This document shows positions 3,218-59,611 of a stretch of DNA of 64,000 bases, in pieces. The notes beneath the pieces were generated by a model that was not told the DNA's origin, did not search any database, and was given only the letters and a program-made list of their open reading frames with translations. The stretch's first letter is position 1. Each line of letters opens with the position of its first letter. The DNA comes from a virus (Duplodnaviria; Caudoviricetes): IMG/VR virus record IMGVR_UViG_3300028588_000019, positions 8,475 to 72,474 of that record, one strand, 5' to 3'. A program made the translations under genes and the position numbers.

Positions 3218-3612
3218 AATTTCACCAGATACTCGAAGGTCCATTCGGACGGGTTACCGAGCAAACCAGCCCGGCTTGGATGTGGGTCGAACACGATTTC
3301 GCCGTCTTTGCCGACAACGGAGTGGAACAAACCTGCACCGCGAGGCGACGGGCCACCGATCAGATGGTAGCCTTCCATGTCGACCGCATAGGTTGGATCG
3401 TGACCGTCGGTGCGGAAGATCATACCAAGGCTGCGTGCGTCCAGGAAATTGAACACAGCATCCCAAAACTCTTCATTCTTGGTGTCCAGCTTTGCAAGGA
3501 AGTGCGGCACGTCCGCAATCGGCAGGTCCAGAACCGAAGCGATGGTTGCACGCATGCAGTCACCGTTTTGCACGCCCGGGATGTTGACGAACTCTTGGTC
3601 TTGGGGTGTCAT
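3214..3612 (-). CDS. putative Cys-His (papain/C39-like) peptidase-fold protein
   Basis: GDCMRATIASVLDLP N-terminus; HSVV...FDPHP C-terminus. Confidence 0.45.
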   Translation of the reverse strand: MTPQDQEFVNIPGVQNGDCMRATIASVLDLPIADVPHFLAKLDTKNEEFWDAVFNFLDARSLGMIFRTDGHDPTYAVDMEGYHLIGGPSPRGAGLFHSVVGKDGEIVFDPHPSRAGLLGNPSEWTFEYLVKL

Positions 3613-3818
3613 GGTTCGAACCTGATGAAGTGGATCTTGGTTTTGCCGTTTGCACCGACACGGAACTGTGGGCAGCAGATATCGTCCAGGACATCGATAG
3701 CCTTGGCCCAGATTGCTTCACCCTTCGGCGTGCGTTCCGCTTCGCAGTCCTTGCCCGGGTTGCGCAGTGCCGTCGCAATATATTCGAACACTGCTGCGTC
3801 GCTTGGTTGGAAGTGCAT
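3609..3818 (-). CDS. hypothetical protein
   Basis: operon packing. Confidence 0.55.
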   Translation of the reverse strand: MHFQPSDAAVFEYIATALRNPGKDCEAERTPKGEAIWAKAIDVLDDICCPQFRVGANGKTKIHFIRFEP

Positions 3819-3821
3819 GGC

Positions 3822-4136
3822 TTATTCCGTGTACAGGTTGAAGCGGAGCCAGAGGTTACCAGCAGCTTCTTGACCACACTCAAAGAACTGCATCTCGGTC
3901 TGCGCGATGATCTGCATGATGCGGTCGCGGAGCATGCGGTTCACGATTGGTGCTTTACCGACACCTTCCATCGTCGCATGGTCGATGATCATCAGCTTCT
4001 TGTTGGGTTGCTGCATTGCTTTAGCGATCATCATAAACGCTTGGGCTTGCGTCTTGCCGGTGAGGCGGTCGCTCGCAACGTTGCGCATGTCGTAGTTCGC
4101 GCCGAGCAGTTGGAACAGTTGGTTCTGTTTGGTCAT
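3822..4136 (-). CDS. hypothetical protein, first gene of the leftward operon
   Basis: ATG at 4136 (MTKQNQ); paralog of 2879-3217. Confidence 0.6.
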   Translation of the reverse strand: MTKQNQLFQLLGANYDMRNVASDRLTGKTQAQAFMMIAKAMQQPNKKLMIIDHATMEGVGKAPIVNRMLRDRIMQIIAQTEMQFFECGQEAAGNLWLRFNLYTE

Positions 4137-4467
4137 GGGATCATGTATCCAGAGGGTTAAGGGGTGCAACAGGGACAACTGTACAGGGGAAATGCGGTTA
4201 TGCAAAGGAATATTTTACGGGGTGGAATTTGGACTGATCGTGGTGTAACTATCGGGTCCGAGATACGGAATTTTCGGTGGGGTATTTTTTCCGCAAATGG
4301 GTAATGTTGAGGTGAAAAAGGGAAGGGGGTGGGTCTAGTGGAACAGATAGAGGATGGGATTGGAGGGCAGTGATGGTTCTAGATAGGGAACTTTGGATTT
4401 TTTACCTAAAATATCACCCCATAGCCTAATATATAGGCATCCGCCCCGATTTACTTACGGCCACTAT

Positions 4468-4564
4468 GTTCCACGCGTTCCACGCACCCTACAGCGCACG
4501 CGCGCACAGCACCCTCCTGCCCCACGCGCAAATTGTTCCACGCGCGCCTACCCCTGTTCCACGC
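4468..4564 (+). repeat. four GTTCCACGC direct repeats (iteron-like)
   Basis: copies at 4468, 4477, 4535, 4556; inverted GTGGAA(C) at 4222 and 4338 across a G-rich/C-rich skew switch at ~4400. Confidence 0.8.
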
Positions 4565-4743
4565 GGTTTAAACCGCATACCTGCTGCCAGGGTGCGCCAG
4601 GGTGCACCAGGCACCCCAGCCGCAGCCCCATAGGTTTTAGCTATGTGTTCCAGTTTGCCCGATAGTTATATACAATCTGCCAAGGTGCACAACCGTGTAT
4701 AGTTACACCTATGCGCTGCACACAACGCTGCACGCAGTACCCC

Positions 4744-4772
4744 GCAAGGGGTGCGCTGTACCCTTGCTTTTT
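4744..4772 (+). terminator. intrinsic terminator-like hairpin
   Basis: GCAAGGG..GTAC/CCTTGC stem followed by TTTTT. Confidence 0.4.
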
Positions 4773-4856
4773 AACAACATAGCAGCTTACTACTAAGCAA
4801 CATTACTATATAGCAATAATGCTGTATAGCAACATACTTTACTATAGGTAAACATT

Positions 4857-5312
4857 ATGCAAAACGCTAAATTCGGTAATACCAAAAACGCAATCGCACG
4901 TATGCAAGCACGCATTGCAGCTGTACAAGCACTGCGCAGCAGCAAGCACGCTGCTCGGGTTGCAGCACGCAACCAACAAGCGTTTACCCTGCAAATGCAG
5001 CAGCTAGCAGCACAGTACAACGTTGCACCCGAGCAGCTTAAAGCAATGCTTGGTGCTACCGACCGTGCAGCACGCGCTAACAGTGCAACTGCTAACCCTA
5101 GCACCGAACTGGTAACGGTTAACGGTGTTAGTTACAAACCATGCGCAGCAGTGCACGCACTGTGCGATTGGTTGGTTAGCACCGAACCAAACGCAACCCG
5201 TAAGCAAATGTTGGAGTTGTGCAAGGATAATGGCATTAACGCAAGTACTGCTGCAACGCAGGTCGGTTTGTACCGTGCACGCGCTAAAGCAGCAGCAGAC
5301 GCAGCACAGTAA
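4857..5312 (+). CDS. Ala/Gln-rich protein with the C-terminal domain shared by four paralogs; encoded almost without GA/TC
   Basis: VHALCD...GINASTAATQVGLYR; all 8 GA dinucleotides come from Asp/Glu codons and there are only 4 TC. Confidence 0.8.
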   Translation: MQNAKFGNTKNAIARMQARIAAVQALRSSKHAARVAARNQQAFTLQMQQLAAQYNVAPEQLKAMLGATDRAARANSATANPSTELVTVNGVSYKPCAAVHALCDWLVSTEPNATRKQMLELCKDNGINASTAATQVGLYRARAKAAADAAQ

Positions 5313-5487
5313 TGCAGCAGCACCCCGAACAGGGGTGCGCTTGCTAGTGTACCTTGGCAACAGGGTGCACCACCAAGCAACAACGTAGCAGATACAAGGT
5401 ACGCAAGGCGCCCTACCCCTCGCTGGGTAGCATCGCTGACCAGCACACCAATGGGTGTGAACAATTAGTAAGCTCTTTAACAATCTA

Positions 5488-5736
5488 TAAGCTCTGCTCC
5501 CACGTTTACACCTTCACGAATAGGGTGTGGGATGACAGGCAACCCCCATGAGTAACCGCGTGCGTGTATGAGCCCGGGACCAAGGATTAAAAGCCGCATG
5601 GGGGAAAATATATTCAGTGGTCCGACCTAACCTGAGTAACAGCTAGTACCTTATCACGAGAAGGTTAGTCAGCATGGTCGGGGTGTGCCCGCGTGACAGG
5701 CGGCATACTTATGTTCACTACCAAGTGCACATAAGT
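5488..5736 (+). ncRNA. cluster of stem-loops upstream of the early array (unassigned structured leader)
   Basis: CCCCCATG/CATGGGGG, CGACC/GGTCG, GTGTGCC/GGCATAC and CTTATGT/ACATAAG stems; no good ORF. Confidence 0.45.
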
Positions 5737-5765
5737 TGATAACCACACTAACAGGGGAATTAATC

Positions 5766-6005
5766 ATGGCATACAACGCTAATATCGAGCAACTTGCAGT
5801 CGACATCAAAAGCTTGACCGATACCGACCTGCAATACCTCGTCAGCTTGCTCAGCAGCGACAGTGACATGGAGGACGACGTCCGCGAGTCAAGCTGCATG
5901 GGTGCAATGGCTTACGCATACCGTACCAGCCGTGCAGTCATCGCTCAGCGCGACTTCAACCTGCGCGAGCAGGCAGCGATGGATGACGCGAACTACAAAT
6001 GGTAG
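5766..6005 (+). CDS. small acidic early protein
   Basis: SD AGGGG then ATG 5766; D/E-rich. Confidence 0.8.
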   Translation: MAYNANIEQLAVDIKSLTDTDLQYLVSLLSSDSDMEDDVRESSCMGAMAYAYRTSRAVIAQRDFNLREQAAMDDANYKW

Positions 6006-6053
6006 AGTAATTTACTAGCTTGCCGTGGCAGGCTAGTGAGTGCACTCTGCACT
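6003..6053 (+). ncRNA. stop-anchored pseudoknot motif, copy R1
   Basis: AGAGT (6004-6008) pairs with loop ACTCT (6044-6048); 11-bp P1; P2 AGTGC/GCACT. Confidence 0.8.
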
Positions 6054-6076
6054 AAACCAACTAACAGGAGTAATTC

Positions 6077-6226
6077 ATGGCAAAGTATAAGATTTCTTAC
6101 ACCCTCAACGGTGCACCACGGAGCAAGGCTGTTTCAGCTGAAAGCGACGGAGAAGCTTGGGAGCTAGCTGAAGAAATAGCTGACCAGTTTGACGACTGTG
6201 AAATCATAAGCGTTGTCGAACAGTAA
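6077..6226 (+). CDS. 49-aa acidic early protein
   Basis: SD AGGAG; MAKYKISYTL...VVEQ, not in the ORF track because it is under 60 aa. Confidence 0.75.
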   Translation: MAKYKISYTLNGAPRSKAVSAESDGEAWELAEEIADQFDDCEIISVVEQ

Positions 6227-6278
6227 GAGTAATTTAGTAGCCTATTCACGAGTAGGTTACTGAGTGCGCTCTTGCACT
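6224..6278 (+). ncRNA. stop-anchored pseudoknot motif, copy R2
   Basis: AAGAGT/GCTCTT pseudoknot; P1 6236-6261; P2 AGTGC/GCACT. Confidence 0.8.
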
Positions 6279-6303
6279 AAAACAACAACATAGGGAGTAA
6301 CTC

Positions 6304-6501
6304 ATGAAAATGATTAAATTCGGTCTTATCCTCACCTTCACGCTTAACACCGTACTGCTTGGCGCTTTTGACCGCTGGGCTAAGTCCGGTGATGGTTTGG
6401 AGTGGTACGGTTTGCTGATGGAAGTTGCAGTGAGTCTTGCAATGTTGGCAAACTTGCTGTCCGCTTCCATGGTGGCAATTTTGCATGCGGAGGGCAAGTG
6501 A
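6304..6501 (+). CDS. small membrane protein
   Basis: SD GGGAG; two hydrophobic helices. Confidence 0.75.
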   Translation: MKMIKFGLILTFTLNTVLLGAFDRWAKSGDGLEWYGLLMEVAVSLAMLANLLSASMVAILHAEGK

Positions 6502-9648: not shown

Positions 9649-9947
9649 GACGCAGAGTCGACGCCAAAATAAATTGTAACAGTTCCGTCCAATTGCGCGC
9701 AAACAAGCCCACAGCACCGAAAATCGGTTAAACTGGGCGTGTTGGTGCAGTAATTAGCGGGGTTTTGGGGGGTTTTTGGGTGCGGGTGCGCCCTACCCCC
9801 TAACCTAGTGCGCAAAACAGCGCCTAGGGTGCTTGCCGTGCGCGGCAGCTACCTTGCGGGTTACATGGTAAGTCCCCACGTTGCAGCTGCAAGGGGGTTT
9901 ACCGGGTAATCTTGCCCAAGTTCTTTCACAATCTAAGGAGAAACACC

Positions 9948-10724
9948 ATGGCACAAGCTCAAACCTCCGCAGCTCCTGGCAAAACCAAAGCTGCGCCACG
10001 CGCATCCCGCGCAAAGAAACCGCAAGCTGAGCAAGTCGTGCAGACGACTGGCAATGCAACGGGCCCTGGCGGCAAGAACATGCCAGAAGTCACCGCGCAG
10101 AACCAGAACCCGCCTGAAATCACGCAAGAGCAGCGTCAAGGTGAACGTCGTCAGCAACAGCAGAGCGCAATCGCGCGCTTTGCCAACCAGTCGATGGACA
10201 CCCCGGCAGCTCACAACGTGCCTGAAGTCACGGACGAACAGCGTAAGCTGATCGCCTTCCAGGAGCAGATGCGCATCACCGCTGAGCAGTTCGGTGTGCA
10301 GCTTCCGCCAAACCTCGAAGACGTGCTCAACGGCAAGGTTGAACAGCCGCAAGCTCAAGGCGCGCAGGGTGCACAACGTGCTCCGCGCAACGCTGACAGC
10401 CAGAACGGTGTCACGCGCCCTGCCAAGGGTACGAAGACCGGTCAGGTGTGGGACGCAGCCGACGCAATCTCGACCAGCAAGAACGGCCAACCGGCCACGA
10501 TTGCTGAAGTCAAAGAGAAGTTGGCTGGTAGCGTCAACGACGCCACGACCCGCACGCAGTATTCGCGGTGGCGTAACTACCACGGCATCAAAGGCCGGCT
10601 CGATGCTCAACCTCAGCAGCAACAAGCTGCCAGTCCTGAAGGACGTGACGAGGGTATCGAGAAAGCCTTCGGTCGTCGCAAGGACGATGTCGACCGTCGC
10701 CAAGCTGAACCAGCTGCACAGTAA
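9948..10724 (+). CDS. Q/A-rich putative DNA-binding protein with the shared C-terminal domain
   Basis: SQNGVTRPAKGTKTGQVWDAAD...NDATTRTQYSRWR; SD AAGGAG. Confidence 0.8.
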   Translation: MAQAQTSAAPGKTKAAPRASRAKKPQAEQVVQTTGNATGPGGKNMPEVTAQNQNPPEITQEQRQGERRQQQQSAIARFANQSMDTPAAHNVPEVTDEQRKLIAFQEQMRITAEQFGVQLPPNLEDVLNGKVEQPQAQGAQGAQRAPRNADSQNGVTRPAKGTKTGQVWDAADAISTSKNGQPATIAEVKEKLAGSVNDATTRTQYSRWRNYHGIKGRLDAQPQQQQAASPEGRDEGIEKAFGRRKDDVDRRQAEPAAQ

Positions 10725-11857: not shown

Positions 11858-12176
11858 AGAAGTGAACAGTTTGCTGTTATTTGGGTTAGTATATGACAAA
11901 TAATGGGTGCTTACCCTATGTAAACGTACTATAAATTAAGTAAAAAAGAAGATTATATATAGTATAGGTAGGAACACCCACCCTCCCGGGATGGTTTCGC
12001 AGCCCCAACACCACCCACAAATAACGCTAAAGCATAACTTGCTCGTTATTATGGCAATTAACTGTATATACTACCCTACCCCCGGCTGTTGTTTATTGCG
12101 TTAGCCCTGTTTCAGCACTATACAGGGGAGGGGTAGGGTGTTATATTAGTGGTTTCCCCACCACGCAAGGATCACC

Positions 12177-15034: not shown

Positions 15035-15314
15035 CGCAACCAACTTCAAAACCCTCGACCTCAAGAAAGTAATTGAGCGCGCCAACGAAATCCTGTGCTG
15101 TCTGCCACTGCTTGATCCGCATGTGGCCTACGGTCTTGAGATTGCTGAAGGTCGTTTGACCGGGCAAGACATTGTATCTCGTCACGAACCGCTGGACCTG
15201 TGGGAGAAGCTGGCGTGGCAAATGGTTTACGCAGAGCTTCGAGAGCAATGCATTCGTGACGGTGACCCGAGCGTTGAAAAGCGCCCAGTCAATTGGAATG
15301 GTGGTTTGACCTAA
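15027..15314 (+). CDS. hypothetical protein
   Basis: SD GGAG; its stop anchors R8. Confidence 0.7.
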   Translation: MINATNFKTLDLKKVIERANEILCCLPLLDPHVAYGLEIAEGRLTGQDIVSRHEPLDLWEKLAWQMVYAELREQCIRDGDPSVEKRPVNWNGGLT

Positions 15315-15363
15315 GTACCAGCCACAGCGTCGTGACAGGGCGCTGTAACGGGTGCTTTACCCG
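15312..15363 (+). ncRNA. stop-anchored pseudoknot motif, copy R8
   Basis: AAGT/GCTT; P1 ACAGCGTC/GGCGCTGT; P2 covaried to CGGGT/ACCCG with loop GCTTT. Confidence 0.7.
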
Positions 15364-26161: not shown

Positions 26162-26190
26162 TTGCATATACGTAACAACGCGCGCATAAT
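26162..26190 (+). promoter_or_regulatory. sigma70-type promoter
   Basis: TTGCAT-N17-CATAAT. Confidence 0.7.
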
Positions 26191-31228: not shown

Positions 31229-31307
31229 AAATAAATGTGTTTGCGCTGCCGCATGTGCTGTACAATGTGTGCTTGTGGTAGCGCAAACCTTAAAGGAGAT
31301 GTGACTT

Positions 31308-32060
31308 ATGTATGTTGTCATAGACCGCGAATACTTGTGTGTCAAGTACAAGCACCCAAACCAATCCGCCATTAACAATCTGGCGTGCATTGAAATCCCG
31401 TACCAGCCAATCGTCGTTGTTAGCGCGACTGATAAAGATAGCTTCGAGTCTTTTACGGACTACGAACTGAAGGTTATGTACGAAAACCTGTGCGGACTGC
31501 TGTACTCGGGCTTTCGTCGTCCGGACCTCGTCACAAGCGTAATCCGTTTGATTGGTATGTTGTCTGAAACCGACTTGGTCCCTCGTGAAGTTGACCAACA
31601 ACTGGACACCATCAAGGACCCGGACGATGGCCCGTTCCAATACGTGCGCGGTTCAGCTGTACCGAAAAAGCAGAACGAGCTCTGGCTACCACCTACGATG
31701 GTCACTCGCGACGGCGTCATCCCAAACGGAAAAAAGTACCATGTACCAGACCCCGTTAAACGCGTGCAACCTCTGTACAGCCCCGTATATACCAACCCCG
31801 CACTGTTTGCAGCGCCTAGCACCCCTGCCGCGCGTGCAAACAGCACCGGGGAACCCAGCGCACCAGCGGCACCGCCCAAAGCGGGTAGCACAACAGGTCG
31901 GGTATGGGCAATTGCGGACGACTGCTACCAGAAGCACTCGGTTCTCGACAAGACCCTGCGCAAGATGGTTGCTGACGAATGCGAAGCGCAGGGTATCAAT
32001 TCCTCCACCATGAGCGTGCAGTTCAGCAAATGGAAGGGACACAAATTGGCACAGTCCTAA
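31308..32060 (+). CDS. protein with the shared C-terminal domain
   Basis: GSTTGRVWAIADD...GINSSTMSVQFSKWK. Confidence 0.8.
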   Translation: MYVVIDREYLCVKYKHPNQSAINNLACIEIPYQPIVVVSATDKDSFESFTDYELKVMYENLCGLLYSGFRRPDLVTSVIRLIGMLSETDLVPREVDQQLDTIKDPDDGPFQYVRGSAVPKKQNELWLPPTMVTRDGVIPNGKKYHVPDPVKRVQPLYSPVYTNPALFAAPSTPAARANSTGEPSAPAAPPKAGSTTGRVWAIADDCYQKHSVLDKTLRKMVADECEAQGINSSTMSVQFSKWKGHKLAQS

Positions 32061-32120
32061 GTGTCAAGGCAAGCACTTTTTCGTGATCCAAAAATATTTG
32101 CTTGTATCCGAAAAAAGTGC

Positions 32121-32149
32121 TTGCAGTTAGTAAATAAGCCGGTTATAGT
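32121..32149 (+). promoter_or_regulatory. sigma70-type promoter; the -35 overlaps an inverted repeat (32071-32122)
   Basis: TTGCAG-N17-TATAGT; AAGCACTTTTTCG...CGAAAAAAGTGCTT. Confidence 0.7.
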
Positions 32150-32221
32150 TAAGCCTCACTCGCCGCAAACAGTGTAACGTAGTTAATCCAGTTTACATCA
32201 AATCATTATTAGGAGTTTCAA

Positions 32222-32818
32222 ATGTCCGAGCAAAAATCCCAAGAGCAAATCGCAGCAGAAGCTGCTGAAACCAAAGCCAAAGCCGACGCCGCCAAAGCGG
32301 AAGCGAAAGCTGCCAAAGACAAGGCCGCCGCTGAAGCCAAGGAAAAGAAACAAGCCGCCGCTGCCGAAGCCAAGCGCCTGAAGGACGAAGCCAAGGCCGC
32401 CGAGAAAGCCGAAAAAGAAGCCAAAGCTGCCGCTGCTGCCAAAGAAAAAGCCGACAAAGCCGCTGCCGCTGCTGCCGAAAAAGCCGCTACTGCCGCTGCC
32501 AAGGTCAAGGTCGTCATGCCATCGCAAAACGGTATCACCCGTCCGAAGACCGGCACCAAGACCGGCGACGTCTGGGCCCTGGCCGACAAGCTGTCCACCG
32601 AAAAGAATGCGCCGATCGCTATCGCTGAACTGCTGCCAGCCGGCGCCGCCGCAGGCCTGAACGACGCGACCATCCGCACGCAATACGCACGCTGGAAAAC
32701 CTTCAACGGCATCTTCGGTTCGGTCAAAGCTGCACCGAAAGCCCCTGAAACCCCGGCACCGACCGCGCAGACCGAACAGACCGCCGGCGCCGAAGCAACC
32801 GAACCGGCCGCCGCCTAA
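32222..32818 (+). CDS. Ala/Lys-rich (H1-like) protein with the shared C-terminal domain
   Basis: AEK repeats; SQNGITRPKTGTKTGDVWALAD...NDATIRTQYARWK. Confidence 0.85.
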   Translation: MSEQKSQEQIAAEAAETKAKADAAKAEAKAAKDKAAAEAKEKKQAAAAEAKRLKDEAKAAEKAEKEAKAAAAAKEKADKAAAAAAEKAATAAAKVKVVMPSQNGITRPKTGTKTGDVWALADKLSTEKNAPIAIAELLPAGAAAGLNDATIRTQYARWKTFNGIFGSVKAAPKAPETPAPTAQTEQTAGAEATEPAAA

Positions 32819-32840
32819 TTCGGCCTGGTCGAGCAGTTAA

Positions 32841-32920
32841 GAGGTGCTAATCGCGGGTACGGGTTTCCAAAATCACGTATCGCAGGATTACGGTCCCGTT
32901 TAAGCCGGGCCACCTCACCA
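32841..32920 (+). ncRNA. tRNA-like RNA with encoded CCA (degenerate; CCA anticodon-like loop)
   Basis: GAGGTG/CACCTC acceptor, discriminator A then CCA, T-like loop TTTAAGC in a CCCG/CGGG stem, TTCCAAA loop; no normal D-arm. Confidence 0.5.
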
Positions 32921-32924
32921 AATC

Positions 32925-33078
32925 GCGCCACTTACCAGATAGGTCTGGGCGCAACCGAGCGGACCCTGTCGTGTAGTTAAGCCCAAGGCGCGAAAGCGTT
33001 GACTTGGTGACTCAGGGGTGAGAAAAACACGATGACAGCTGGCAAAGACCGCCCCGAAAGGGTTCCCATTTACCCGTA
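32925..33078 (+). ncRNA. unassigned structured RNA upstream of queE
   Basis: CTGTC/GACAG and GTGT/ACAC outer stems, CCAAG/CTTGG with a GAAA-capped hairpin, CCC-GAAA-GGG hairpin. Confidence 0.45.
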
Positions 33079-33110
33079 CACAGACAAGGTCTGTTCCTCT
33101 GAGGTGTCAA

Positions 33111-33839
33111 TTGCAAGTCATCCCAATCAATAAGCAACCGATCGAAAAGCGCAACAACGAGGCGCGTTCGCTCGAAGTCCATTCCATTTTCCTCACCATT
33201 CAAGGTGAGGGTCCATTCACCGGATACCCAGCAGTATTCATCCGCCTCGCGGGCTGCAACCTGCAATGCCCTTCGTGCGACACCGACTACACCAACGGTC
33301 GCAAGGGTATGTCCGTCGAAGCAATTGTGTCGGAAGTGAAAAGCGTGCACTCGGAATGCAATGCGCGGCCCATTGTGGTCATCACCGGTGGCGAACCCTT
33401 CCGTCAAAACATCGAACAACTGGTTGAACTGCTGTTGCGCCAGGACTTTACCGTCCAGGTCGAGACCAACGGTACGCTTGCACCACTCAACGTCCAAGCA
33501 CCAGTGTGGTTCAATCGCAAGTTTCACATCGTATGCAGCCCGAAGGCTGGCAAGGTACACAACTGGATTGCCAATCGCGCCGACTGCTTCAAGTACGTCC
33601 TGAGCGCCGACAGTGTCGACCCGGAAGACGGCCTGCCAATCCTTGCGCTTAACCACACTGCCTCGCCGCGCGTTGCTCGTCCATTCTTCAGCACGAAGAA
33701 CAAGCCCATCTATCTGCAACCGATGGACGCGAAAGACCAAGCTAAGAACGATGCTAACGTCTGCGCAGTCCTGCAAAGCTGCATCAAACACGGCTATATC
33801 TTCCAACTGCAAACGCACAAATACATCGGGGTCGAATGA
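33111..33839 (+). CDS. queE: 7-carboxy-7-deazaguanine synthase (radical SAM)
   Basis: SIFLTIQGEG...RLAGCNLQCPSCDT, TGGEP, ETNGT, LQTHK; TTG start after GAGG. Confidence 0.95.
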   Translation: MQVIPINKQPIEKRNNEARSLEVHSIFLTIQGEGPFTGYPAVFIRLAGCNLQCPSCDTDYTNGRKGMSVEAIVSEVKSVHSECNARPIVVITGGEPFRQNIEQLVELLLRQDFTVQVETNGTLAPLNVQAPVWFNRKFHIVCSPKAGKVHNWIANRADCFKYVLSADSVDPEDGLPILALNHTASPRVARPFFSTKNKPIYLQPMDAKDQAKNDANVCAVLQSCIKHGYIFQLQTHKYIGVE

Positions 33840-34039
33840 TGGCAATTAACGTTAAACGCATTGTCGAGGTTTCGGTTGACATGACCCTCGACGAGCAACA
33901 GGCTGGCGAGCTTCTGGATTTTTTGCGGACCGCTGTCACTGTCACTGCACCGCGCCCCATGACTCCAGGTTCCCGACCAACTAACATCGTGCGCGAGCTG
34001 GCAGACGCACTCATCGCTCAAGGGGTTGTTTCAAAATGA
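33836..34039 (+). CDS. hypothetical protein
   Basis: ATGA overlap. Confidence 0.6.
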   Translation: MMAINVKRIVEVSVDMTLDEQQAGELLDFLRTAVTVTAPRPMTPGSRPTNIVRELADALIAQGVVSK

Positions 34040-34323
34040 GGCTCGAAGACTGGAGTGTGGTCGCTTCACCATTGTCAGGTTACCGTGACCCGGAGCAATG
34101 GTCCCCTAAGCTGTACGGCACGGTGTACGGTAATCCAAAGTTCGCGGACGGTTCGCTTATTTTTACGAGCCGCATTGTTACGGTGGACAAAAAGGCTGGC
34201 ACTGCAACCACCAAGTCCGGCAGCGTCTATGTGCTGGGTGAAGTGTCCGCAGAATACGAAAACATTCATCCAAACGCGCGTGAGCGCTTCTTCAATCAAG
34301 GGGTTAGCAATGTTCAAAATTAA
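34036..34323 (+). CDS. hypothetical protein
   Basis: L.G.VYG.P.F.DG..I.TS...T.SG..Y.LG pattern. Confidence 0.7.
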   Translation: MRLEDWSVVASPLSGYRDPEQWSPKLYGTVYGNPKFADGSLIFTSRIVTVDKKAGTATTKSGSVYVLGEVSAEYENIHPNARERFFNQGVSNVQN

Positions 34324-35107
34324 AGCACTGGTCGTCCTGTCCGGCGGCCAAGATTCGACCACCTGCGCATTCTGGGCCAAGCAGCAGGGTTACGAGATCC
34401 ACGCGGTGACTTTCGATTACGGTCAGAAGCACGTCATCGAAATCGAAGCGGCCAAGAAGATCGCGGAACTCGTCGGCGCCGTGTCGCACGAGATCATCAA
34501 GCTGGGCGACGGCGTCCTGGCCGGTACGTCCCCGCTCACCAACAAAGCGGAAGTCCTGGAACAATACGCCGACCACCAATCGCTGCCAGGCGGTCTGGAA
34601 AAGACCTTCGTACCGCTGCGCAATCAGCTGTTCTTGACCGTTGCTGCGAACCGCGCCTACGTCATGGGCTGTACCGTGCTGGTCACCGGCGTCTGTCAAG
34701 AAGACAGCGGAGGCTATCCGGACTGCCGCGCCACCTTCATCAGCGCCGTACAGGACGCAACCAACTATGGTACGTTTACCGGCGAACCCGGTACGCTGCC
34801 ACCCCTGCGCATCCTGACCCCGCTGATGTACCTGACCAAGGCCGACAGCGTGCGCCTGGCGCGTGCCATCCCGGGCTGCTACGATGCGCTGGCGTATTCC
34901 CACACCAGCTACGACGGCGCTTACCCGCCCGTAGGTAAAGACCATGCAACCCTCCTGCGCGCAAAAGGCTTCGAAGAAGCAGGCTTGCCTGACCCGCTGG
35001 TCGTGCGTGCATGGAAAGAGGGTCTGATGGACCTTCCAGATACGAAGGTTTACAACGACTTCGAAGACCAAATGGACGCTGCTCGCGAAGCTGCTGAGGG
35101 CGACTAA
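34310..35107 (+). CDS. queC: 7-cyano-7-deazaguanine (preQ0) synthase; variant lacking the Zn-binding cysteines
   Basis: SGGQDST, FDYGQKH, FVPLRN, GYPDCR; ATG 34310. Confidence 0.93.
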   Translation: MFKIKALVVLSGGQDSTTCAFWAKQQGYEIHAVTFDYGQKHVIEIEAAKKIAELVGAVSHEIIKLGDGVLAGTSPLTNKAEVLEQYADHQSLPGGLEKTFVPLRNQLFLTVAANRAYVMGCTVLVTGVCQEDSGGYPDCRATFISAVQDATNYGTFTGEPGTLPPLRILTPLMYLTKADSVRLARAIPGCYDALAYSHTSYDGAYPPVGKDHATLLRAKGFEEAGLPDPLVVRAWKEGLMDLPDTKVYNDFEDQMDAAREAAEGD

Positions 35108-35108
35108 C

Positions 35109-35303
35109 ATGGCAATCGGCGGCGGTATTCGTAAAGGCAATGGCTGCGTTACCGCCGCCAAGCCCGAGTCCATTTACGAGGCGCATCGTAAGCTCGAGAA
35201 GAAGTACACTGAAAAGTGCCAGCAACTTGAGCGTGCAGAGAAGAAAATCTTAATTCTGAACGAGCGCATTAAAAAACTTTCTGCAAAGAAGAATCCAAAA
35301 TGA
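35109..35303 (+). CDS. small coiled-coil protein
   Basis: heptad C-terminus. Confidence 0.6.
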   Translation: MAIGGGIRKGNGCVTAAKPESIYEAHRKLEKKYTEKCQQLERAEKKILILNERIKKLSAKKNPK

Positions 35304-35824
35304 GCAAATATCGCAGTACCAAGACCTACGGTCACGAGCTCGGACTGTCGGCGTGCTTCCGCCAGCATCGTGCAACGCATTCGCACTGCTCGATGCTGCA
35401 CGGTTACGCGCTCGCGTTCACTTTCACGTTCGAAGCAGACACGCTGGACGACCGCAATTGGGTCCAGGACTTCGGAGGCCTGAAAGAACTGAAGCAAAAG
35501 CTTCAACGGACGTTCGACCACAAGCTGGTCGTCGCGGAAGACGATCCGAAGGTGCACGAGATTTGCCGTTTGGACGGCTACGTCGCGGACGTACTTGTGC
35601 TGCCTGCGGTCGGCTGCGAAGCGTTCGCGAAACAGGCTTACGACATGGCCTGTGAAGTTATTCGTGACGCAAACAAGGCTGAGGTTGCTCGTCTCCAGTC
35701 TGAGCACAAGCCTGGCACCCAATGGCCAACCGCTGGTCGTCAGCGCGTCCGCGTCGTGTCGGTCGAGTGCCGCGAGCACGGCGCCAACAGCGCAATTTAC
35801 ATCGGTGGCGAGGATGAAGCATAA
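35300..35824 (+). CDS. queD: 6-carboxy-tetrahydropterin synthase
   Basis: HCSMLHGY...DFG.LK...FDH...CE..A...E. Confidence 0.92.
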   Translation: MSKYRSTKTYGHELGLSACFRQHRATHSHCSMLHGYALAFTFTFEADTLDDRNWVQDFGGLKELKQKLQRTFDHKLVVAEDDPKVHEICRLDGYVADVLVLPAVGCEAFAKQAYDMACEVIRDANKAEVARLQSEHKPGTQWPTAGRQRVRVVSVECREHGANSAIYIGGEDEA

Positions 35825-36053
35825 ACTCATCTATGACAGGCGAGCAGGCGGTTACTCAGCAATCTGTTCGCTTTATAACCAACTCGGGGTGGCGGAATTC
35901 GTCATCACTATGGACCATAACGAAGGATTTACGCATAGCGTGCTTCGTGTTCCAGACGAGAAGGTTATTGTCACCTGGCGCAAACTTGGCAAGGACATGC
36001 ACAACTGTCCTGTCGAACCTAATAAATTTATTGTTACGAAATCACTAGCATGA
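35814..36053 (+). CDS. hypothetical protein
   Basis: SD GGCGAGG, ATG 35814. Confidence 0.6.
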   Translation: MKHKLIYDRRAGGYSAICSLYNQLGVAEFVITMDHNEGFTHSVLRVPDEKVIVTWRKLGKDMHNCPVEPNKFIVTKSLA

Positions 36054-36673
36054 ACATTAAAGAAAACGAGCAAGGTCAAAAGCACTACATCCGCGTGAAA
36101 GCTGTCGAACAACTGCTACGCACGATCCCGGGCACACTAGCACCTGCACCAGCAGAATTCGGACAGCTGACCGGCGCACTGCGCGAAGGCGTCCAGGACA
36201 CGCCGAATCGCGTTGCCAAGGCTTGGGCGGAATGGACCAGCGGTTATAGCATTGACATCGCAGAACTGCTGAAGGTGTTCGAAGACGGCGCCGAGGGCTA
36301 CGATGAGATGGTTGTGGTCAAAGACATCCCCATCTACAGCAAGTGCGAGCATCACCTCGCAGACATCTTCGGCACGGCAACCATCGCGTATATCCCGGAC
36401 GGCAAGGTTGTCGGCCTGTCCAAGCTGTCCCGCCTGGCAGATGCGTTCGCAAAGCGTCTGCAAGTGCAGGAGCGCCTGACGGTGCAGATCGCTGACGCGC
36501 TGATGGAACATCTGCAACCGAAAGGCTGTGGCGTTATCGTCCGTGCCAGACATATGTGCATGGAATCGCGGGGCATCTGCCAGCAAGGTCACCACACTGT
36601 GACTTCCGCATTGCGCGGTGTGTTCAAGGATCAACCTGAAACCCGCGCCGAATTCCTGGCGCACGGAAAATAA
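36050..36673 (+). CDS. folE: GTP cyclohydrolase I
   Basis: TPNRVAK, SKCEHH, GLSKL, RLQVQERLT, HMCMESRG. Confidence 0.97.
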   Translation: MNIKENEQGQKHYIRVKAVEQLLRTIPGTLAPAPAEFGQLTGALREGVQDTPNRVAKAWAEWTSGYSIDIAELLKVFEDGAEGYDEMVVVKDIPIYSKCEHHLADIFGTATIAYIPDGKVVGLSKLSRLADAFAKRLQVQERLTVQIADALMEHLQPKGCGVIVRARHMCMESRGICQQGHHTVTSALRGVFKDQPETRAEFLAHGK

Positions 36674-36682
36674 GGAGTCACC

Positions 36683-37048
36683 ATGTTGTTCCGTAAAAAG
36701 CCAGTCGTTATCGATGCGACGCAGTGGTTTAAGAATGGGGACCATCCGCAGGACTACGCCAAAGACGTAGAGGGATTCAAAAACGGCCAACACCATGTCT
36801 ATGACAAATGTGTTGCGTCCACGAACGGTTGGGAAGGTCAGGTTGTCCGCCACTACCGCCACCCGGAAGTGGCGGGTGACACCCCGTGCAAGCATTGCGG
36901 TCAAACCATGCACGACCACGGTTTGGTCGAAACGTTGGAAGGCGGTCACATCGTCTGTCCTGGAGACTGGATTATTACGGGTGTGAAGGGTGAACACTAT
37001 CCGTGCAAACCTGACATTTTTGATGTAACGTACGAACAAGTTAAATAA
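36683..37048 (+). CDS. conserved-type phage protein (PGDWII...YPCKPDIF family)
   Basis: TLEG...PGDWII.GVKGE.YPCKPDIF..TYE. Confidence 0.75.
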   Translation: MLFRKKPVVIDATQWFKNGDHPQDYAKDVEGFKNGQHHVYDKCVASTNGWEGQVVRHYRHPEVAGDTPCKHCGQTMHDHGLVETLEGGHIVCPGDWIITGVKGEHYPCKPDIFDVTYEQVK

Positions 37049-37050
37049 GT

Positions 37051-37180
37051 CTGCCAGGGTGACCCAGAGCCACTGCAATGGTTAGGTGACACCTTTTTGA
37101 CTGAAGCTGGTAGGTGGCAGCATCTAGCGAACAGCAGACCGGAGCCGAAAGGTAGTCTGATCCGGTCACCTTCTAACCTA
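37051..37180 (+). ncRNA. unassigned structured intergenic RNA
   Basis: CTGCCA/TGGCAG, GGTTAG-GTGAC/GTCAC..CTAACC and CAGAC/GTCTG with a GAAA hairpin. Confidence 0.4.
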
Positions 37181-37193
37181 CTGAGGAAATAAC

Positions 37194-37757
37194 ATGAATC
37201 AAAAATATAACTTCTCGCTGTCCAAGAATGCGCTGTTCGGTATCGGTGCAGTGATCCTGCTGGCACTGGCAATCATGGTTGCCGTCTGGCCATCCAAGCC
37301 GACGCAAAGCTACCGTGAAGGTGCGGGCACCACGCGCGAGGGTACGGGCATCTATCGCGAAGGCATCGGCGGCGCTGCACCAGTTGCCCACAACTACCAA
37401 CCGGAGCAGTACGCGCATCCCGCACCAGTACAAGCGCAACCCGCTCCGGTTGTGGTGCAACAAGCTGCATCGTCGCGCGGCACGGACATGCTGACCGGTG
37501 CCGCTATCGGTGCGCTCGCAACCCATGCGCTGACGTCCAAACCGGCTGCACCCGCGCCGGAACGCATCGTCGAACGTCGTACTGTGGTCAAGTACGTGCA
37601 GACCCCTCGCCCGAGCGTGCGTCCGCAGAAACCATACGTGCCTGCATACAAGTCCGATCGCTACGTGTCGACGTATAAAGCACCGACCAGCTACAGGCCA
37701 GCGAGCTATTCCAGCGGGTCGTCATATCGCTCGACAGCAAGCTTCAGCAAGCGTTAA
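37194..37757 (+). CDS. membrane-anchored low-complexity protein
   Basis: N-terminal TM, second hydrophobic patch, S/Y/R-rich tail. Confidence 0.75.
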   Translation: MNQKYNFSLSKNALFGIGAVILLALAIMVAVWPSKPTQSYREGAGTTREGTGIYREGIGGAAPVAHNYQPEQYAHPAPVQAQPAPVVVQQAASSRGTDMLTGAAIGALATHALTSKPAAPAPERIVERRTVVKYVQTPRPSVRPQKPYVPAYKSDRYVSTYKAPTSYRPASYSSGSSYRSTASFSKR

Positions 37758-37783
37758 AACGCGCTACAAGCGCGTGCAATCCG

Positions 37784-37815
37784 GGGGTGCAGTGTGCTAT
37801 GCTGTACCCCTTTTT
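37784..37815 (+). terminator. intrinsic terminator
   Basis: GGGGTGCAG/CTGTACCCC followed by TTTTT. Confidence 0.7.
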
Positions 37816-37872
37816 AACGCGCTGCGCACCCTTGCCGCAAGCGCAAACCGCATTCCAGGGCCAGTACAAGCT

Positions 37873-38799
37873 ATGAAACTTTTCCTCGCTGCTGTCTACA
37901 CCAATCATTACATGGAGACGCAGAACCGCTACGAGAAGCTGAACGAAGCTGAGCAGCACATTATGTCGGATGTCCCGAACATCCTTGAATCATATCACTA
38001 CGTTAAGAACCAGTCCTTTGTAGATACAATGAGGTCGCGCGGTGCAAAGGTCTTTCTTGACTCGGGCGCATTCTCCGCGCACTCGCTGAACGCCCATATT
38101 GATATCAACCAGTATTGCGACTACATCATCCGCAACAGGGATATCCTGCGCGTCGAAGATGGCGCAGTAATGGCTTCGGTGCTTGACGGTATCGGTGACC
38201 CGCTCAAGACCTACCAGCACCAGCTTCACATGGAAAAGATGGGTGCAAAGCCTCTCCCCTGCTTCCACTACGGCGAAGACATCCGTTACCTCGAGTTCTA
38301 CGTCAAGAACTATGACTACATTACGATCGGTGGTCTGGTGCGGCGCACGTCCGAAGCACAGAAGGTGTGGTTAGACCGCATTTGGCCGTACATGCTGGAC
38401 GGTAGCGGTCGTCCAAAGTTGAAAGTCCATGCCTTCGGTATGACGGCACCGTGGCTGATGGAACGATATCCATGGTACAGTGTCGACTCCTCGTCTTGGA
38501 TTCAGGCAGCGGCGTTCGGTTCCATCTTTACCAGCGAGCACGGACCAATTGCAGTGTCCAGCACTTCGCCTTCCCGGCACGACTACGGCAGGCACATAAC
38601 CACACTACCCGACGTCGAGCGTCAATACATGGAGCAAATGCTCGCTAAAAAAGGTTTTGAAACTGAGCGTCTAGGCACAGTTTACGAATCCCGGGCAGTG
38701 TATAATATGCTGGGGTACATGGAATTAAACGACCTGATCCTCGAGCGGATCAAAGGCAAGCAGACATTCGATTGCAGTAAAATTCAGGAGCTATTCTAA
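37873..38799 (+). CDS. dpdA: DNA 7-deazaguanine transglycosylase (TGT-like)
   Basis: FLDSGAFS, HYGE, HAFG, SVDSSSW; next to the que genes; no clear SD, so start uncertain. Confidence 0.85.
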   Translation: MKLFLAAVYTNHYMETQNRYEKLNEAEQHIMSDVPNILESYHYVKNQSFVDTMRSRGAKVFLDSGAFSAHSLNAHIDINQYCDYIIRNRDILRVEDGAVMASVLDGIGDPLKTYQHQLHMEKMGAKPLPCFHYGEDIRYLEFYVKNYDYITIGGLVRRTSEAQKVWLDRIWPYMLDGSGRPKLKVHAFGMTAPWLMERYPWYSVDSSSWIQAAAFGSIFTSEHGPIAVSSTSPSRHDYGRHITTLPDVERQYMEQMLAKKGFETERLGTVYESRAVYNMLGYMELNDLILERIKGKQTFDCSKIQELF

Positions 38800-39218
38800 T
38801 GTGTGTAATTGACAGCTTTAACGGGGAGTTCCGCTTCCTGTCCAACTTTGCTTATTCTGAATTCACTTTGTACGGTACGCGCTACCCGACCGTTGAGCAC
38901 GCCTACCAAGCATTGAAGTGTGTCAGCCAGCGCGACCACGACGGGATTGCGACTGCGCGAACTCCAGGCGTTGCCAAGAAGCTCGGTCGTGTAGTTCAGC
39001 TGCGCGAAGATTGGGAACAGTCAAAAGATGCGGTTATGATAGCATGTGTGTACGCCAAGTTCAAACAGAACCCGCATCTAGCCGAGCAACTGCGCAACAC
39101 TCGCGGATGCACGCTAATCGAAGGGAATACGTGGGGTGACCATTATTGGGGCGTCTGTAAGGGGACCGGGCAGAACATGCTTGGACAAATTCTAATGCGA
39201 GTAAGGGACATGGTTTAA
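38799..39218 (+). CDS. NADAR/YbiA family protein
   Basis: FLSNF...YPTVEHAYQA.K...AKKLGR...KF.QN..L...L.EGN.W.D..WG. Confidence 0.92.
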   Translation: MCVIDSFNGEFRFLSNFAYSEFTLYGTRYPTVEHAYQALKCVSQRDHDGIATARTPGVAKKLGRVVQLREDWEQSKDAVMIACVYAKFKQNPHLAEQLRNTRGCTLIEGNTWGDHYWGVCKGTGQNMLGQILMRVRDMV

Positions 39219-39650: not shown

Positions 39651-40621
39651 CTACAATGCTCGAAGCGTTGAAGTTTGTACAAGGAAGTATCGCTAAAAAA
39701 GAACTGGTCGATGAGCTCACGCACTTCCAAATTAAGAACGGTCGGGTTAGCGGTTACAACGGCGTGATTGCGCTTAGCAGCCCTATCCCGTTCGATCTCA
39801 ACTGCAACCCCAAAGCAGCAGAGCTCATCAAAGCTATCTCAAACTGCGACGAAAATGACACCATCCAGTTGTCGTTGACCCCAGGCGGCAAGCTGACCGT
39901 CAAGAGCGCAGGGTTCCGCGTCAACATCCAGTCTTTCAATGAGCCTGTGCACAGTTACGAGCCTGAAGGTGAAGTTGTAGAGTTCGACGGCGAAGCGTTC
40001 TTGCAGGGTGTGAAGGCTGTGTCCCCATTCATTGGACAGGATGCTTCGCGTAAATGGTCGCAGGGTGTGCTAATTAAAGACAGCTCGTTCTTTGCGACCA
40101 ATAATGTCACGTTGGTCCAATACTGGCTGGGCGCAGTATTTCCGTTCGAGATTAACATCCCGATGCCTACGGTTAAAGAAATTCTGCGCATCAAGGAAGC
40201 ACCCCTCTCGATGCAGGTTGCGGAGAACTGCTTTACCCTGCACTACAGCGGGGACCGCTGGCTCCGGTCGCAGTATTACAGTATCAAAGAGTGGCCTGAC
40301 CTTGGGAAGATCCTGGACCGCCCGTTTAACCCCGGACCACTTGATCCAGCAGTCTTTGTTGGTCTTGAAAAGATGAAAAGCTTCGTCGACCCGCTGGGGA
40401 GCATTTACTTCCAGGGCGGTCTGATGACCACACATCCTGACGTTGCTGAAGCTAACGCCACGTTCGCGGTCCCGAGCATCCAAACCGAAGGCCTGTTTAA
40501 CAATCAAATGCTTGCGCTGCTCGAAGGTGTTGCGACGCATATCGACTGGACAACCTACCCTGCACCGTGCCTGTTCTCAGGCGATCGGCTGCGCGGTGCA
40601 ATTGTGGGGATGCGCAAATGA
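39647..40621 (+). CDS. beta-clamp-like DNA polymerase processivity factor
   Basis: three-domain size; N-terminus and terminal motifs resemble DnaN; next to the polymerase. Confidence 0.7.
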   Translation: MTTMLEALKFVQGSIAKKELVDELTHFQIKNGRVSGYNGVIALSSPIPFDLNCNPKAAELIKAISNCDENDTIQLSLTPGGKLTVKSAGFRVNIQSFNEPVHSYEPEGEVVEFDGEAFLQGVKAVSPFIGQDASRKWSQGVLIKDSSFFATNNVTLVQYWLGAVFPFEINIPMPTVKEILRIKEAPLSMQVAENCFTLHYSGDRWLRSQYYSIKEWPDLGKILDRPFNPGPLDPAVFVGLEKMKSFVDPLGSIYFQGGLMTTHPDVAEANATFAVPSIQTEGLFNNQMLALLEGVATHIDWTTYPAPCLFSGDRLRGAIVGMRK

Positions 40622-43043: not shown

Positions 43044-43086
43044 AACGCGTTTGCCGCGTTTTGTTTGCGCGGTAGGGGGTAAGTGT

Positions 43087-43120
43087 AGGGGGTACGGGCT
43101 TTGCAGCGTGTACCCCCTTT
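43087..43120. terminator. terminator-like hairpin between convergent operons
   Basis: AGGGGGTAC/GTACCCCCT followed by TT, between the polymerase and spanin stops. Confidence 0.55.
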
Positions 43121-43124
43121 GCCG

Positions 43125-43637
43125 TTACTGCGCTGGTGCGTTGCAGGTGTCCCGCGCAGCGTTGTACAGGTCGATCAGGAGGTTGCGTTCTCGCACAAGT
43201 CTTGCACTGTCTGCTGCGGCGCGGAGAACGTCTTCAGAAGCTTCTGGCACCAGATCGGTTCCTCCTTCTTCGACACCGAATCCGGCAGTGGTGGGATTTG
43301 AGGGCGCTTGGTTTCCAGGAGCCGGACTTGCGGGGCAGCGCAACCCGCTAGTGCCAGCACGAGCCCGAGCAATAGCTTTTTCAATTGCATCTTCATGTTT
43401 AGCTTTCAGGATGGATTCGTTGGTGGTGAGGGTTTGGACTTGAGCTTTCAACGCTGCTTCGCGCTGTTCGGCAAGCTTGTTCAGTTTGACTTGAGCGTCT
43501 TTCGCGATCTTGTCGTCGGATGCAATTTGAGCAAGCAATTCTTGCGCACCGTCGTGACGCCCGTACTGGAATAGACCATAACCCAGCAGCGCAGCAAGCA
43601 GAAGGCCCACGAACCAGTCCAACAGGTCGGACTTCAT
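43125..43637 (-). CDS. i-spanin (Rz-like)
   Basis: N-terminal TM, coiled coil, follows the endolysin. Confidence 0.85.
   Translation of the reverse strand: MKSDLLDWFVGLLLAALLGYGLFQYGRHDGAQELLAQIASDDKIAKDAQVKLNKLAEQREAALKAQVQTLTTNESILKAKHEDAIEKAIARARAGTSGLRCPASPAPGNQAPSNPTTAGFGVEEGGTDLVPEASEDVLRAAADSARLVRERNLLIDLYNAARDTCNAPAQ
43175..43396 (-). CDS. embedded o-spanin lipoprotein (Rz1-like)
   Basis: LVLALAG-C lipobox, Pro-rich, nested in another frame of Rz. Confidence 0.8.
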   Translation of the reverse strand: MKMQLKKLLLGLVLALAGCAAPQVRLLETKRPQIPPLPDSVSKKEEPIWCQKLLKTFSAPQQTVQDLCENATS

Positions 43638-59192: not shown

Positions 59193-59206
59193 GATTCTTC
59201 CTTCAA

Positions 59207-59611
59207 TTATAGATAGATGTCGGCGTAAAACGGGACTCGCACGATTACGACATAACTTTCATCGTGCGGTACACCAGTCCCGATTTCGGGGGTACGGTCA
59301 ATGACAGTGGTGATACCGTTACTGCTAAACGTCGATCCCCTCGGGAACGTTTTACGAATCAGCTCAGCCCTCAACTTTGCCGATCTTGAACCAGTTAGAA
59401 GCGGGTAGTACAGAGTCAACTGCATGTACCCGCGTTCCCGATAGAAAGTTGCGTCCATCGTTACGTCGTCTGGTTGCACAAACAGAAAGTTCACCTTCTG
59501 CCATGGAACATCCACGACGGGGGTAAAGAGCGTGTTCTCCCAAGCGGTCGGCAATTCCGGCATAGCTGCAAGCGCAAGCTCAAGGGCCGATTGGATCGCG
59601 AGTTGAGACAC
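59207..59611 (-). CDS. tail terminator (DUF4128-like)
   Basis: AWEN..F.P...PW...GY.Q...P...G. Confidence 0.8.
   Translation of the reverse strand: MSQLAIQSALELALAAMPELPTAWENTLFTPVVDVPWQKVNFLFVQPDDVTMDATFYRERGYMQLTLYYPLLTGSRSAKLRAELIRKTFPRGSTFSSNGITTVIDRTPEIGTGVPHDESYVVIVRVPFYADIYL

Follow-up and report, generated by a model that had tools for sequence, protein, structure and literature searches.

A 64,000-bp window (bases 8475–72474 of the 72,474-bp IMG/VR virus record IMGVR_UViG_3300028588_000019; window coordinates are used throughout) from a phage that encodes a 7-deazaguanine DNA modification module contains, at 4401–5420, an island of about 1 kb from which two short words, GA/TC and GGC/GCC, have been largely removed. 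These are the motifs of DpdA, the DNA transglycosylase of such modules, in the related phage CAjan, and the purge probably represents avoidance of the words recognized by the phage's own DpdA. The island looks to have been selected to lack them, as the depletion affects both strands, synonymous sites, non-coding DNA, the amino-acid composition of the encoded protein (open reading frame ORF151) and the corresponding loci of diverged relatives.

GA/TC depletion of the island

The stretch 4401–5420 contains 12 GA and 13 TC, or 25 GA/TC steps against ~118 expected (the window mean is 115 per kb), and the reference segment 5761–6000 contains 30 (17 GA and 13 TC). The hand counts of the initial annotation (about 12 GA and 14 TC in the island, about 30 steps in the reference segment) were thus essentially reproduced; its statement that 4679–4876 lacks both words holds for GA, the segment having a single TC at 4873. 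The longest GA/TC-free run of the genome (197 bp, 4676–4873) lies within the island. Sliding-window statistics with correction for codon and amino-acid content, suggested at that stage as a check, sustained the depletion. When the complete genome (72,474 bp) is scanned in 1-kb windows, the island has z = −9.0 for GA/TC and is the sole such outlier, the minimum of the other symmetric dinucleotides never falling under z = −3.7. The odds ratios rho(GA) and rho(TC) are 0.19 and 0.21 in the island (0.92 genome-wide), with GC, CA/TG and TA elevated in compensation for the loss of GA/TC. The left edge of the island is abrupt, at the right end of a G-skewed spacer, the purge is deepest from a putative transcription start to the hairpins that follow the ORF151 stop codon, and normal density is regained from ~5420.

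The depletion is strand-symmetric (63 GA and 80 TC in the pooled islands of the relatives described below), suggesting a reader of double-stranded DNA rather than of mRNA. An APOBEC-like mutational bias was ruled out by the lack of AA/TT enrichment. Nor is freedom from GA/TC a general property of intergenic DNA, where the effect is only mild (intergenic/coding ratio of 0.8–0.9, with crude gene calls).

Codon usage and composition of ORF151

As initially annotated, all 8 GA in ORF151 come from its 8 Asp/Glu codons, and Ser is always encoded by AGC (four codons) or AGT (three), never by TCN. When codons were drawn from genome usage with the amino-acid sequence fixed (5,000 simulations), 35.9±4.0 GA/TC were expected versus 12 observed (z = −6), and no simulation gave fewer than 21. 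Moreover, Ala makes up 24% of the protein, and none of its 36 codons is GCC. The same preferences are seen in ten strict homologues, where GCC serves for 3 of 366 Ala codons (19% in the genome), TCN for 5 of 57 Ser codons (62%), ATC for 3 of 39 Ile codons (54%) and GTC for 4 of 121 Val codons (30%). The effect extends to the protein itself, with Asp and Glu together accounting for 5.2% of ORF151 and 2.2% of the ten strict homologues, as compared to 11.2% of the proteome.

A second depleted word and the predicted specificity of DpdA

The core of the island (4677–5420) contains 5 GGC/GCC where ~24 are expected, a ~5-fold depletion and the genome-wide minimum; the 13 occurrences considered in the initial annotation all lie within 4401–4676. 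Its assessment that GGC/GCC is not obviously depleted is therefore not supported by the core counts or by the absence of GCC among the Ala codons of ORF151. A comparison of all trinucleotides in the pooled islands of ten relatives placed the eight that contain GA at 0.08–0.17 of expectation, and the next most depleted was GGC/GCC at 0.27 (79 observed versus 289 expected; 2 versus 25, 3 versus 34 and 5 versus 37 at individual loci). The roughly equal loss of all eight GA trinucleotides indicates a two-nucleotide word, not a specific site or a protospacer-adjacent motif (PAM) of the TTC/GAA type.

The DpdA of CAjan inserts preQ0 at two motifs, GA and GGC (Kot et al. 2020, PMC7544227), and that of phage iggy uses GA only (Olsen et al. 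2023, PMC10484667). Since GGC/GCC is depleted beside GA, the sequence points to a CAjan-like dual specificity of the DpdA studied here, in place of the GA-focused enzyme predicted initially. Accordingly, of the original proposal that this DNA is unmodifiable by design, selection against DpdA words is upheld by codons, leader, protein and relatives, and the exclusive focus on GA is not.

Conservation and lability among relatives

Relatives of the locus were found by an alignment-based scan (ORF151 alone and its 260-aa left neighbour gave no confirmed relative); the metagenome contigs scanned were mostly of 1–6 kb, too short to link the island with dpdA. Twelve homologues of ORF151 were obtained at 38–69% identity. 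In every related contig they occupy the same place, behind a long spacer at the divergence point and ahead of all other rightward genes. Ten relatives retain the island over this same range of protein identity. In the strict islands (L003/4/5, L009–L015, L023 and L080) coding GA+TC approximately equals the number of Asp+Glu codons. In the extreme case, L023, an island of 1,476 bp has 7 GA/TC, the ORF151 homologue is devoid of Asp, Glu, GA and TC, and a second island ORF (L023:10420–10686, 88 aa) also lacks Asp and Glu.

Pairs of strict members differ by 36–37 synonymous codon changes, with only 1–3 GA/TC steps touching those codons. In pairs of a strict and a relaxed member (islands are relaxed or absent in L006/7, L008, L016 and L017), the GA/TC steps number 1 versus 15, 2 versus 18, 0 versus 10 and 0 versus 7. 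Each of the two protein subgroups has strict and relaxed members, which points to a constraint that is strong in the genomes it affects and that was gained or lost on more than one occasion.

Near-identical strains from three other soil or leaf-litter runs show no difference across 4858–5408 and four substitutions in 4615–4694, none of which makes GA/TC (too few events for a test). Their flanks (3571–4069 and 5767–6425) differ at 9–15 positions.

Association with dpdA and the Iggyvirus zone

Whole genomes were scanned for the ratio of minimum to median GA/TC in 800-bp windows. This ratio is 0.10–0.17 in three complete genomes of the clade (G000, G001 and G002), 0.27 in Iggyvirus PBPA162, and 0.59–0.79 in six complete dpdA-negative genomes collected by similarity of the large terminase subunit (TerL). 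None of these six has an island; equal depletion in dpdA-lacking relatives, named initially as grounds for refutation, was thus not seen, and the comparison favours the reading. Within the sample, strong islands occur only together with dpdA, in two separate lineages.

In PBPA162 and iggy (94% identical) the GA/TC minimum is a 1-kb non-coding stretch at the divergence point, with 12 GA/TC per 600 bp against a median of 58. GGC/GCC is only ~2-fold low in the iggy zone (z −2), a mild dip as would be expected for a GA-only enzyme. A motif-poor zone is mentioned in neither the CAjan paper (PMC7544227) nor the iggy paper (PMC10484667), and a full-text literature search retrieved no published description.

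As a separate observation, PBPA162 (NC_070971.1) has GA/TC-free runs at 25–196, 3439–3612, 15184–15345, 39719–39868 and 43422–43574 (149–173 bp, ~0.001 expected), some of them inside small annotated genes (gp01, gp04 and gp20). Iggyvirus may thus have several small motif-free segments.

Alternative explanations

A first alternative, which we regard as unlikely albeit not negligible, is that the island is a cis-acting element that terminase, replication or recombination proteins need in unmodified form (a genome end, a direct terminal repeat, a packaging site, an origin), its gene having been purged as a passenger. An origin or packaging role had been among the initial proposals. The zone in iggy is a suggestive parallel. 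It is the sole strong GA/TC-poor zone of that genome, occupies the same divergence point, and contains both the start and the end of the linear record (21 GA/TC per kb in the last 670 bp and 62 in the first 960 bp, with ~92–115 in the adjoining sequence); the iggy termini, mapped with nanopore reads, include a 1,091-bp direct terminal repeat (PMC10484667). Two independent assemblies of relatives (G002 and G003) also break no more than 260 bp from the island. Furthermore, iteron-like GTTCCACGC repeats and the single-copy word TTTACTTACGG lie in the upstream part. Such clustered direct repeats could bind an initiator, as in an iteron-type replication origin, although this is only suggestive; neither an initiator gene adjoining the repeats nor an unwinding element was identified. 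The distribution of the purge, however, does not follow the repeats. The purge is weakest in the repeat-bearing part (4401–4676) and deepest over leader and coding region, where even Asp and Glu are removed, and the island edges coincide with those of a transcription unit. In addition, terS is ~6 kb away, TerL shares ~50% identity with its counterpart in Seuratvirus, a genus without an island, and the 127-bp repeat shared by the record ends (a circular assembly) resembles an assembler k-mer overlap.

It is improbable, in our estimate, that the words are instead avoided because of another reader of GA/TC on unmodified DNA (a host restriction or defence nuclease, or CRISPR PAM recognition), the stretch being exposed before or without modification. 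The island is labile among close relatives that keep dpdA, as expected of a host-specific selective agent, and many restriction sites contain GA/TC (in the pooled islands GATC occurs 0 times versus 33 expected, and TCGA 2 versus 46). Yet the palindromes as a class do not behave accordingly. While 6-bp palindromes containing a DpdA word number 2 versus 44 expected, those free of GA/TC/GGC/GCC number 212 versus 87 and are 2.4-fold enriched, with TGCA (207 versus 66), GTAC (106 versus 37), GCGC (152 versus 70), CTAG and TATA likewise in excess. Restriction-site avoidance, offered initially as the alternative, is contradicted by this pattern. Such a reader is also at odds with the even reduction of the eight GA trinucleotides and with the absence of an island from the dpdA-negative relatives, and would leave unexplained the only further strongly depleted word, GGC/GCC, which is the second CAjan DpdA motif. 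Selection removes short words, synonymous sites included, here as in the known avoidance of restriction sites or PAMs by phages; the island differs in being local (1 kb of 72 kb), in being defined by a dinucleotide and one trinucleotide, and in its enrichment of other palindromes.

It is very unlikely that the pattern arose as a by-product of composition, through a low-complexity Ala/Gln-rich gene, codon bias linked to expression or a foreign cassette of recent acquisition, and the codon-controlled tests contradict this. ORF151 does have an unusual composition, and DUF669-type genes with Pro/Ala linkers show mild GA/TC dips. The depletion nevertheless persists with amino acids fixed and extends to a 180-bp non-coding leader without GA or TC, the capsid gene is normal at 117 GA/TC per kb, the cassette keeps its syntenic position throughout the clade, and close relatives encode the same protein with normal codons.

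A proposed early cassette free of the phage's own modification

Avoidance of DpdA words leaves open a choice of functions, among which we lean towards an early cassette that is kept free of the phage's own modification and expressed first. The purge follows the transcription unit, is deepest over its transcribed part and affects both strands, and defences against preQ0 exist: phage DNA that carries preQ0 or G+ is degraded by the defence glycosylase Dag1 (bioRxiv 10.1101/2025.10.29.685425). Together these points favor an unmodified, first-expressed cassette. The island would then represent a whole early transcription unit, composed of regulatory DNA, leader, ORF151 and 3' hairpins. A CAjan-type DpdA would swap G for a 7-deazaguanine base at GA and GGC after replication, so that a word-free stretch would remain ordinary DNA in every virion, with a modified G every ~8–9 bp elsewhere; the island is probably the sole part of the genome to enter the cell as plain DNA. 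There the cassette would have to function on the incoming genome ahead of any phage protein. The host's RNA polymerase and DNA-binding proteins could read it in its plain form, and defences directed at modified guanine, for example Dag-type glycosylases or type IV enzymes, would find no substrate in it. The phage would make ORF151, a small DNA-binding-like protein, before any other product. Modification at GA and GGC, the unmodified state of the island, its first expression and the benefit of staying unmodified are all what we infer from sequence.

Several observations weigh against this reading. Two genomes of the clade with intact dpdA, G003 and G011, have relaxed islands (ratios 0.53 and 0.45), and CAjan, a Nipunavirus and three dpdA-positive genomes of 56–57 kb have none (0.56–0.71). 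Thus dpdA alone is not sufficient for an island, and the modification system does not by itself impose one. The comparison between dpdA-positive and dpdA-negative genomes also covers few, phylogenetically clustered genomes. The neighbouring early genes (5766 onward) are normal in GA/TC, which excludes a general difficulty in transcribing modified DNA as the reason for the purge. The modified motif is deduced from two DpdA clades with experimentally mapped motifs, to which this DpdA is 60–65% identical, and DpdA specificity varies. Finally, ORF151 has no recognizable function, with no match in Pfam or PHROG, and Foldseek against the PDB returned nothing at E ≤ 0.001, only weak homeodomain-like or helix-turn-helix (HTH)-like rows.

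Comparison with known systems helps to place the island. CAjan (Seuratvirus) shares the FolE/QueD/QueE/QueC/DpdA set in a syntenic module, and the purged words are its two motifs. In contrast, no motif-free island is seen in CAjan itself (its minimum ratio is 0.62, and its longest run without GA/TC, 81 bp, is about as expected by chance), and the phage described here is a 72-kb uncultured phage of soil and leaf litter. The Iggyvirus phages iggy and PBPA162 share the bidirectional genome with a zone of ~1 kb, lowest in GA/TC, at the divergence point, but their zone is non-coding and less extreme (0.27), and the termini map into it in iggy. A more remote analogy is provided by the first-step-transfer (FST) DNA of T5 and gene 0.3 (Ocr) of T7, known for staged DNA entry and the absence of particular restriction sites. 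As in those cases, the first gene of the early arm would form a self-contained unit that seemingly escapes an attack or handicap at the DNA level during entry. However, what has been removed here are target words of the phage's own modification, and the basic, HTH-like ORF151 is unlike an acidic DNA mimic.

Features of the locus and the genome

The coordinates of the features are collected in Table 1. The leftward operon begins with a minus-strand gene starting at 4136. The spacer that follows is GA-rich and G-skewed, as described initially; the repeats that had been assigned to it are not there, all four GTTCCACGC copies lying inside the island. Of the 11 GA/TC steps retained in 4401–4676, five are within GTTCCA words, where the opposite strand would thus bear a modified G. 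Relatives have at the spacer position a poly-T run followed by GGG-rich sequence. Within the related loci, TTTACTTAC occurs once in 11 of 14 and GTTTAAACCG in 6 of 14. The last base of the putative promoter is the first base of the 197-bp GA/TC-free run. A consensus promoter scan omitted this promoter (its −35 box is weak) and listed a leftward one (TTGCTA, 16 nt, TATAGT) at 4832–4805. AT-rich TATAGCAA-type repeats are located in the leader before the start codon, and Rfam gave nothing near threshold in 4000–6100.

Table 1. Features of the island, the modification module and related genes (window coordinates unless a genome is named).
Feature	Position	Strand	Remarks
G-skewed, GA-rich spacer	4210–4400		G 71, C 17, GA 19, TC 7; between leftward operon and island
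Upstream non-coding part of island	4401–4676	+	partly purged; GA 2, TC 8, GGC 3, GCC 10
Word TTTACTTACGG	4450	+	single copy; conserved in 11 of 14 related loci
Four GTTCCACGC repeats	4468, 4477, 4535, 4556	+	within 97 bp; conserved in three further loci
Palindrome GGTTTAAACC	4565		upstream island part
CAGGGTGC repeats	4588, 4598		upstream island part
GTTCCA	4647	+	in addition to the four GTTCCACGC
Putative sigma-70-type promoter	4648–4676	+	TTCCAG, 17-nt spacer, TACAAT; predicted from sequence
Leader	4677–4856	+	180 bp; 0 GA, 0 TC, single GCC; hairpins
Terminator-like stem, then GCTTTTT	4747–4775	+	in leader
ORF151	4857–5312	+	first rightward gene; 151 aa, basic, Ala/Gln/Asn-rich; GA/TC 12, minimum possible 8
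Three stable hairpins directly after ORF151 stop	5313–5435	+	−60.1 kcal/mol, z = −3.7; right island edge
ORF151-domain paralogue	9948–10724		hhalign E = 0.03
ORF151-domain paralogue	31308–32060		hhalign E = 6e-7
ORF151-domain paralogue	32222–32818		hhalign E = 8e-5
7-deazaguanine module overall	33111–38799	+	complete preQ0 gene set folE/queD/queE/queC and dpdA
QueE	33111–33839	+	Pfam Radical_SAM; PHROG matches for module
QueC	34310–35107	+	Pfam QueC 1.1e-52
QueD	35300–35824	+	PHROG QueD 2e-38
FolE	36050–36673	+	Pfam GTP_cyclohydroI 8.7e-65
DpdA (tRNA-guanine transglycosylase (TGT)-like DNA transglycosylase)	37873–38799 (open from 37774)	+	phrog_887, E = 1.9e-79; intact
Genes particular to relaxed genomes	G003:28316–29020, 31985–33187; G011:53259–54017, 58023–59207		RtcB / phrog_20531

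The phage is a siphovirus with a tape measure protein of ~2,000 aa and its own DNA polymerase, primase and helicase genes. The minus strand carries the genes for capsid, scaffold, portal and terminase. The genome is bidirectional and resembles those of Queuovirinae, with the island at the divergence point. Phage DNA is present in 6 metagenome runs from leaf litter and soil, and a single source contig spans 3500–6500 across the island. Queries with the island and with 20 kb of the window found no nucleotide match among ~50,000 phage records. Synteny with CAjan and other Queuovirinae extends over the replication and modification module, and the complete CAjan-type set named in the initial annotation is indeed encoded, as judged by Pfam and PHROG. 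By tblastn, DpdA is 64–65% identical to the Seuratvirus (CAjan-type) enzymes, 57–61% to those of Pseudomonas phages (~61% to Nipunavirus, ~57% to Iggyvirus PBPA162) and 56% to 9g.

The AlphaFold2 (AF2) model of ORF151 (predicted local distance difference test, pLDDT, 80) starts with a long helix at the N terminus and ends in an HTH-like domain of three helices (GINxxTAxTQ). Foldseek against a viral library gave weak matches to uncharacterized phage proteins, a protein atlas likewise provided no usable lead, and tblastn against the ~50,000 phage records returned nothing. The C-terminal domain is related to those of three other proteins of the same phage (hhalign). Two of these paralogues are encoded between the helicase gene and queE, the position of gp46 and gp47 in CAjan and of gp04 and gp05 in PBPA162 (47–70% identity over ~70 aa). 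This pair is a conserved, uncharacterized partner of the deazaguanine module. A GA-poor island at each winged HTH (wHTH) paralogue was considered and rejected as weak, the upstream 150 bp of those beyond ORF151 having 7, 11 and 12 GA/TC versus 16.3±4.1.

Further observations concern the genome at large. Additional GA/TC-free runs are found at 9724–9873 (149 bp), upstream of the wHTH258 gene, and at 43032–43150 (118 bp), in a convergent terminator region, rich in hairpins, that follows the DNA polymerase gene (~0.04 runs of at least 100 bp are expected by chance). Among the 150-bp regions upstream of 44 plus-strand genes, the lowest GA/TC is in 37723–37872 (upstream of dpdA) and 12027–12176, with 6 each versus 16.3±4.1. 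Promoter-like sites at 26162–26190, 32121–32149 and 31229–31260 have, by eye, −35 boxes TTGCAT, TTGCAG or TTGCGC, not TTGACA, and these variants keep G out of the GA context. A NADAR-domain gene (38799–39218) directly downstream of dpdA is also present in G002 and absent from G001, G003 and G011. Coding GA/TC per kb is 97–136 in dpdA-positive genomes, mostly below the six dpdA-negative TerL relatives (127–146), and intergenic rho(GA/TC) is 0.69–0.89 in most dpdA-positive genomes (0.98 in G009 and 1.10 in the Nipunavirus) as against 0.98–1.22 in dpdA-negative ones, a comparison confounded by GC content and phylogeny and made with crude gene calls.

Some features distinguish individual relatives. 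In G002 and G003, whose records are labelled 'linear', the contig ends (L015:1–188 and L016:1–158) overlap themselves by 188 and 158 bp at 99.4% identity with a poly-T indel; both contigs break at most 260 bp left of the island, which could represent homopolymer heterogeneity or a real DNA end. The relaxed genomes G003 and G011 have a gene for an RtcB RNA ligase directly after dpdA, and in both of them queC and queD flank a gene for a secreted Asn/Ser/Gln-rich protein (phrog_20531); strict genomes have neither. The possibility that these extra genes alter the modified base was rejected, since an RNA ligase and a secreted low-complexity protein are not modification enzymes.

Implications

If the proposed role is correct, hypermodification of phage DNA has a cost, and these phages exempt one cassette from it at the price of a protein nearly devoid of Asp and Glu. 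As a tentative and on balance doubtful extension, deazaguanine phages of several lineages may keep such a modification-free 'beachhead', the first DNA to be read, whose product would enable use of the modified genome or block defences. The purged words would then reveal the DpdA specificity of each phage from its sequence: GA and GGC in the clade described here and GA only in iggy, the latter in agreement with the iggy experiment. A cultured Iggyvirus with an analogous zone is available, and public nanopore data exist for iggy, from wild-type as well as amplified DNA. The approach would also provide a way to find immediate-early or leading-end genes in uncultured phages, and it would make ORF151 and its paralogues candidates for the handling of modified DNA or of modification-dependent defences.

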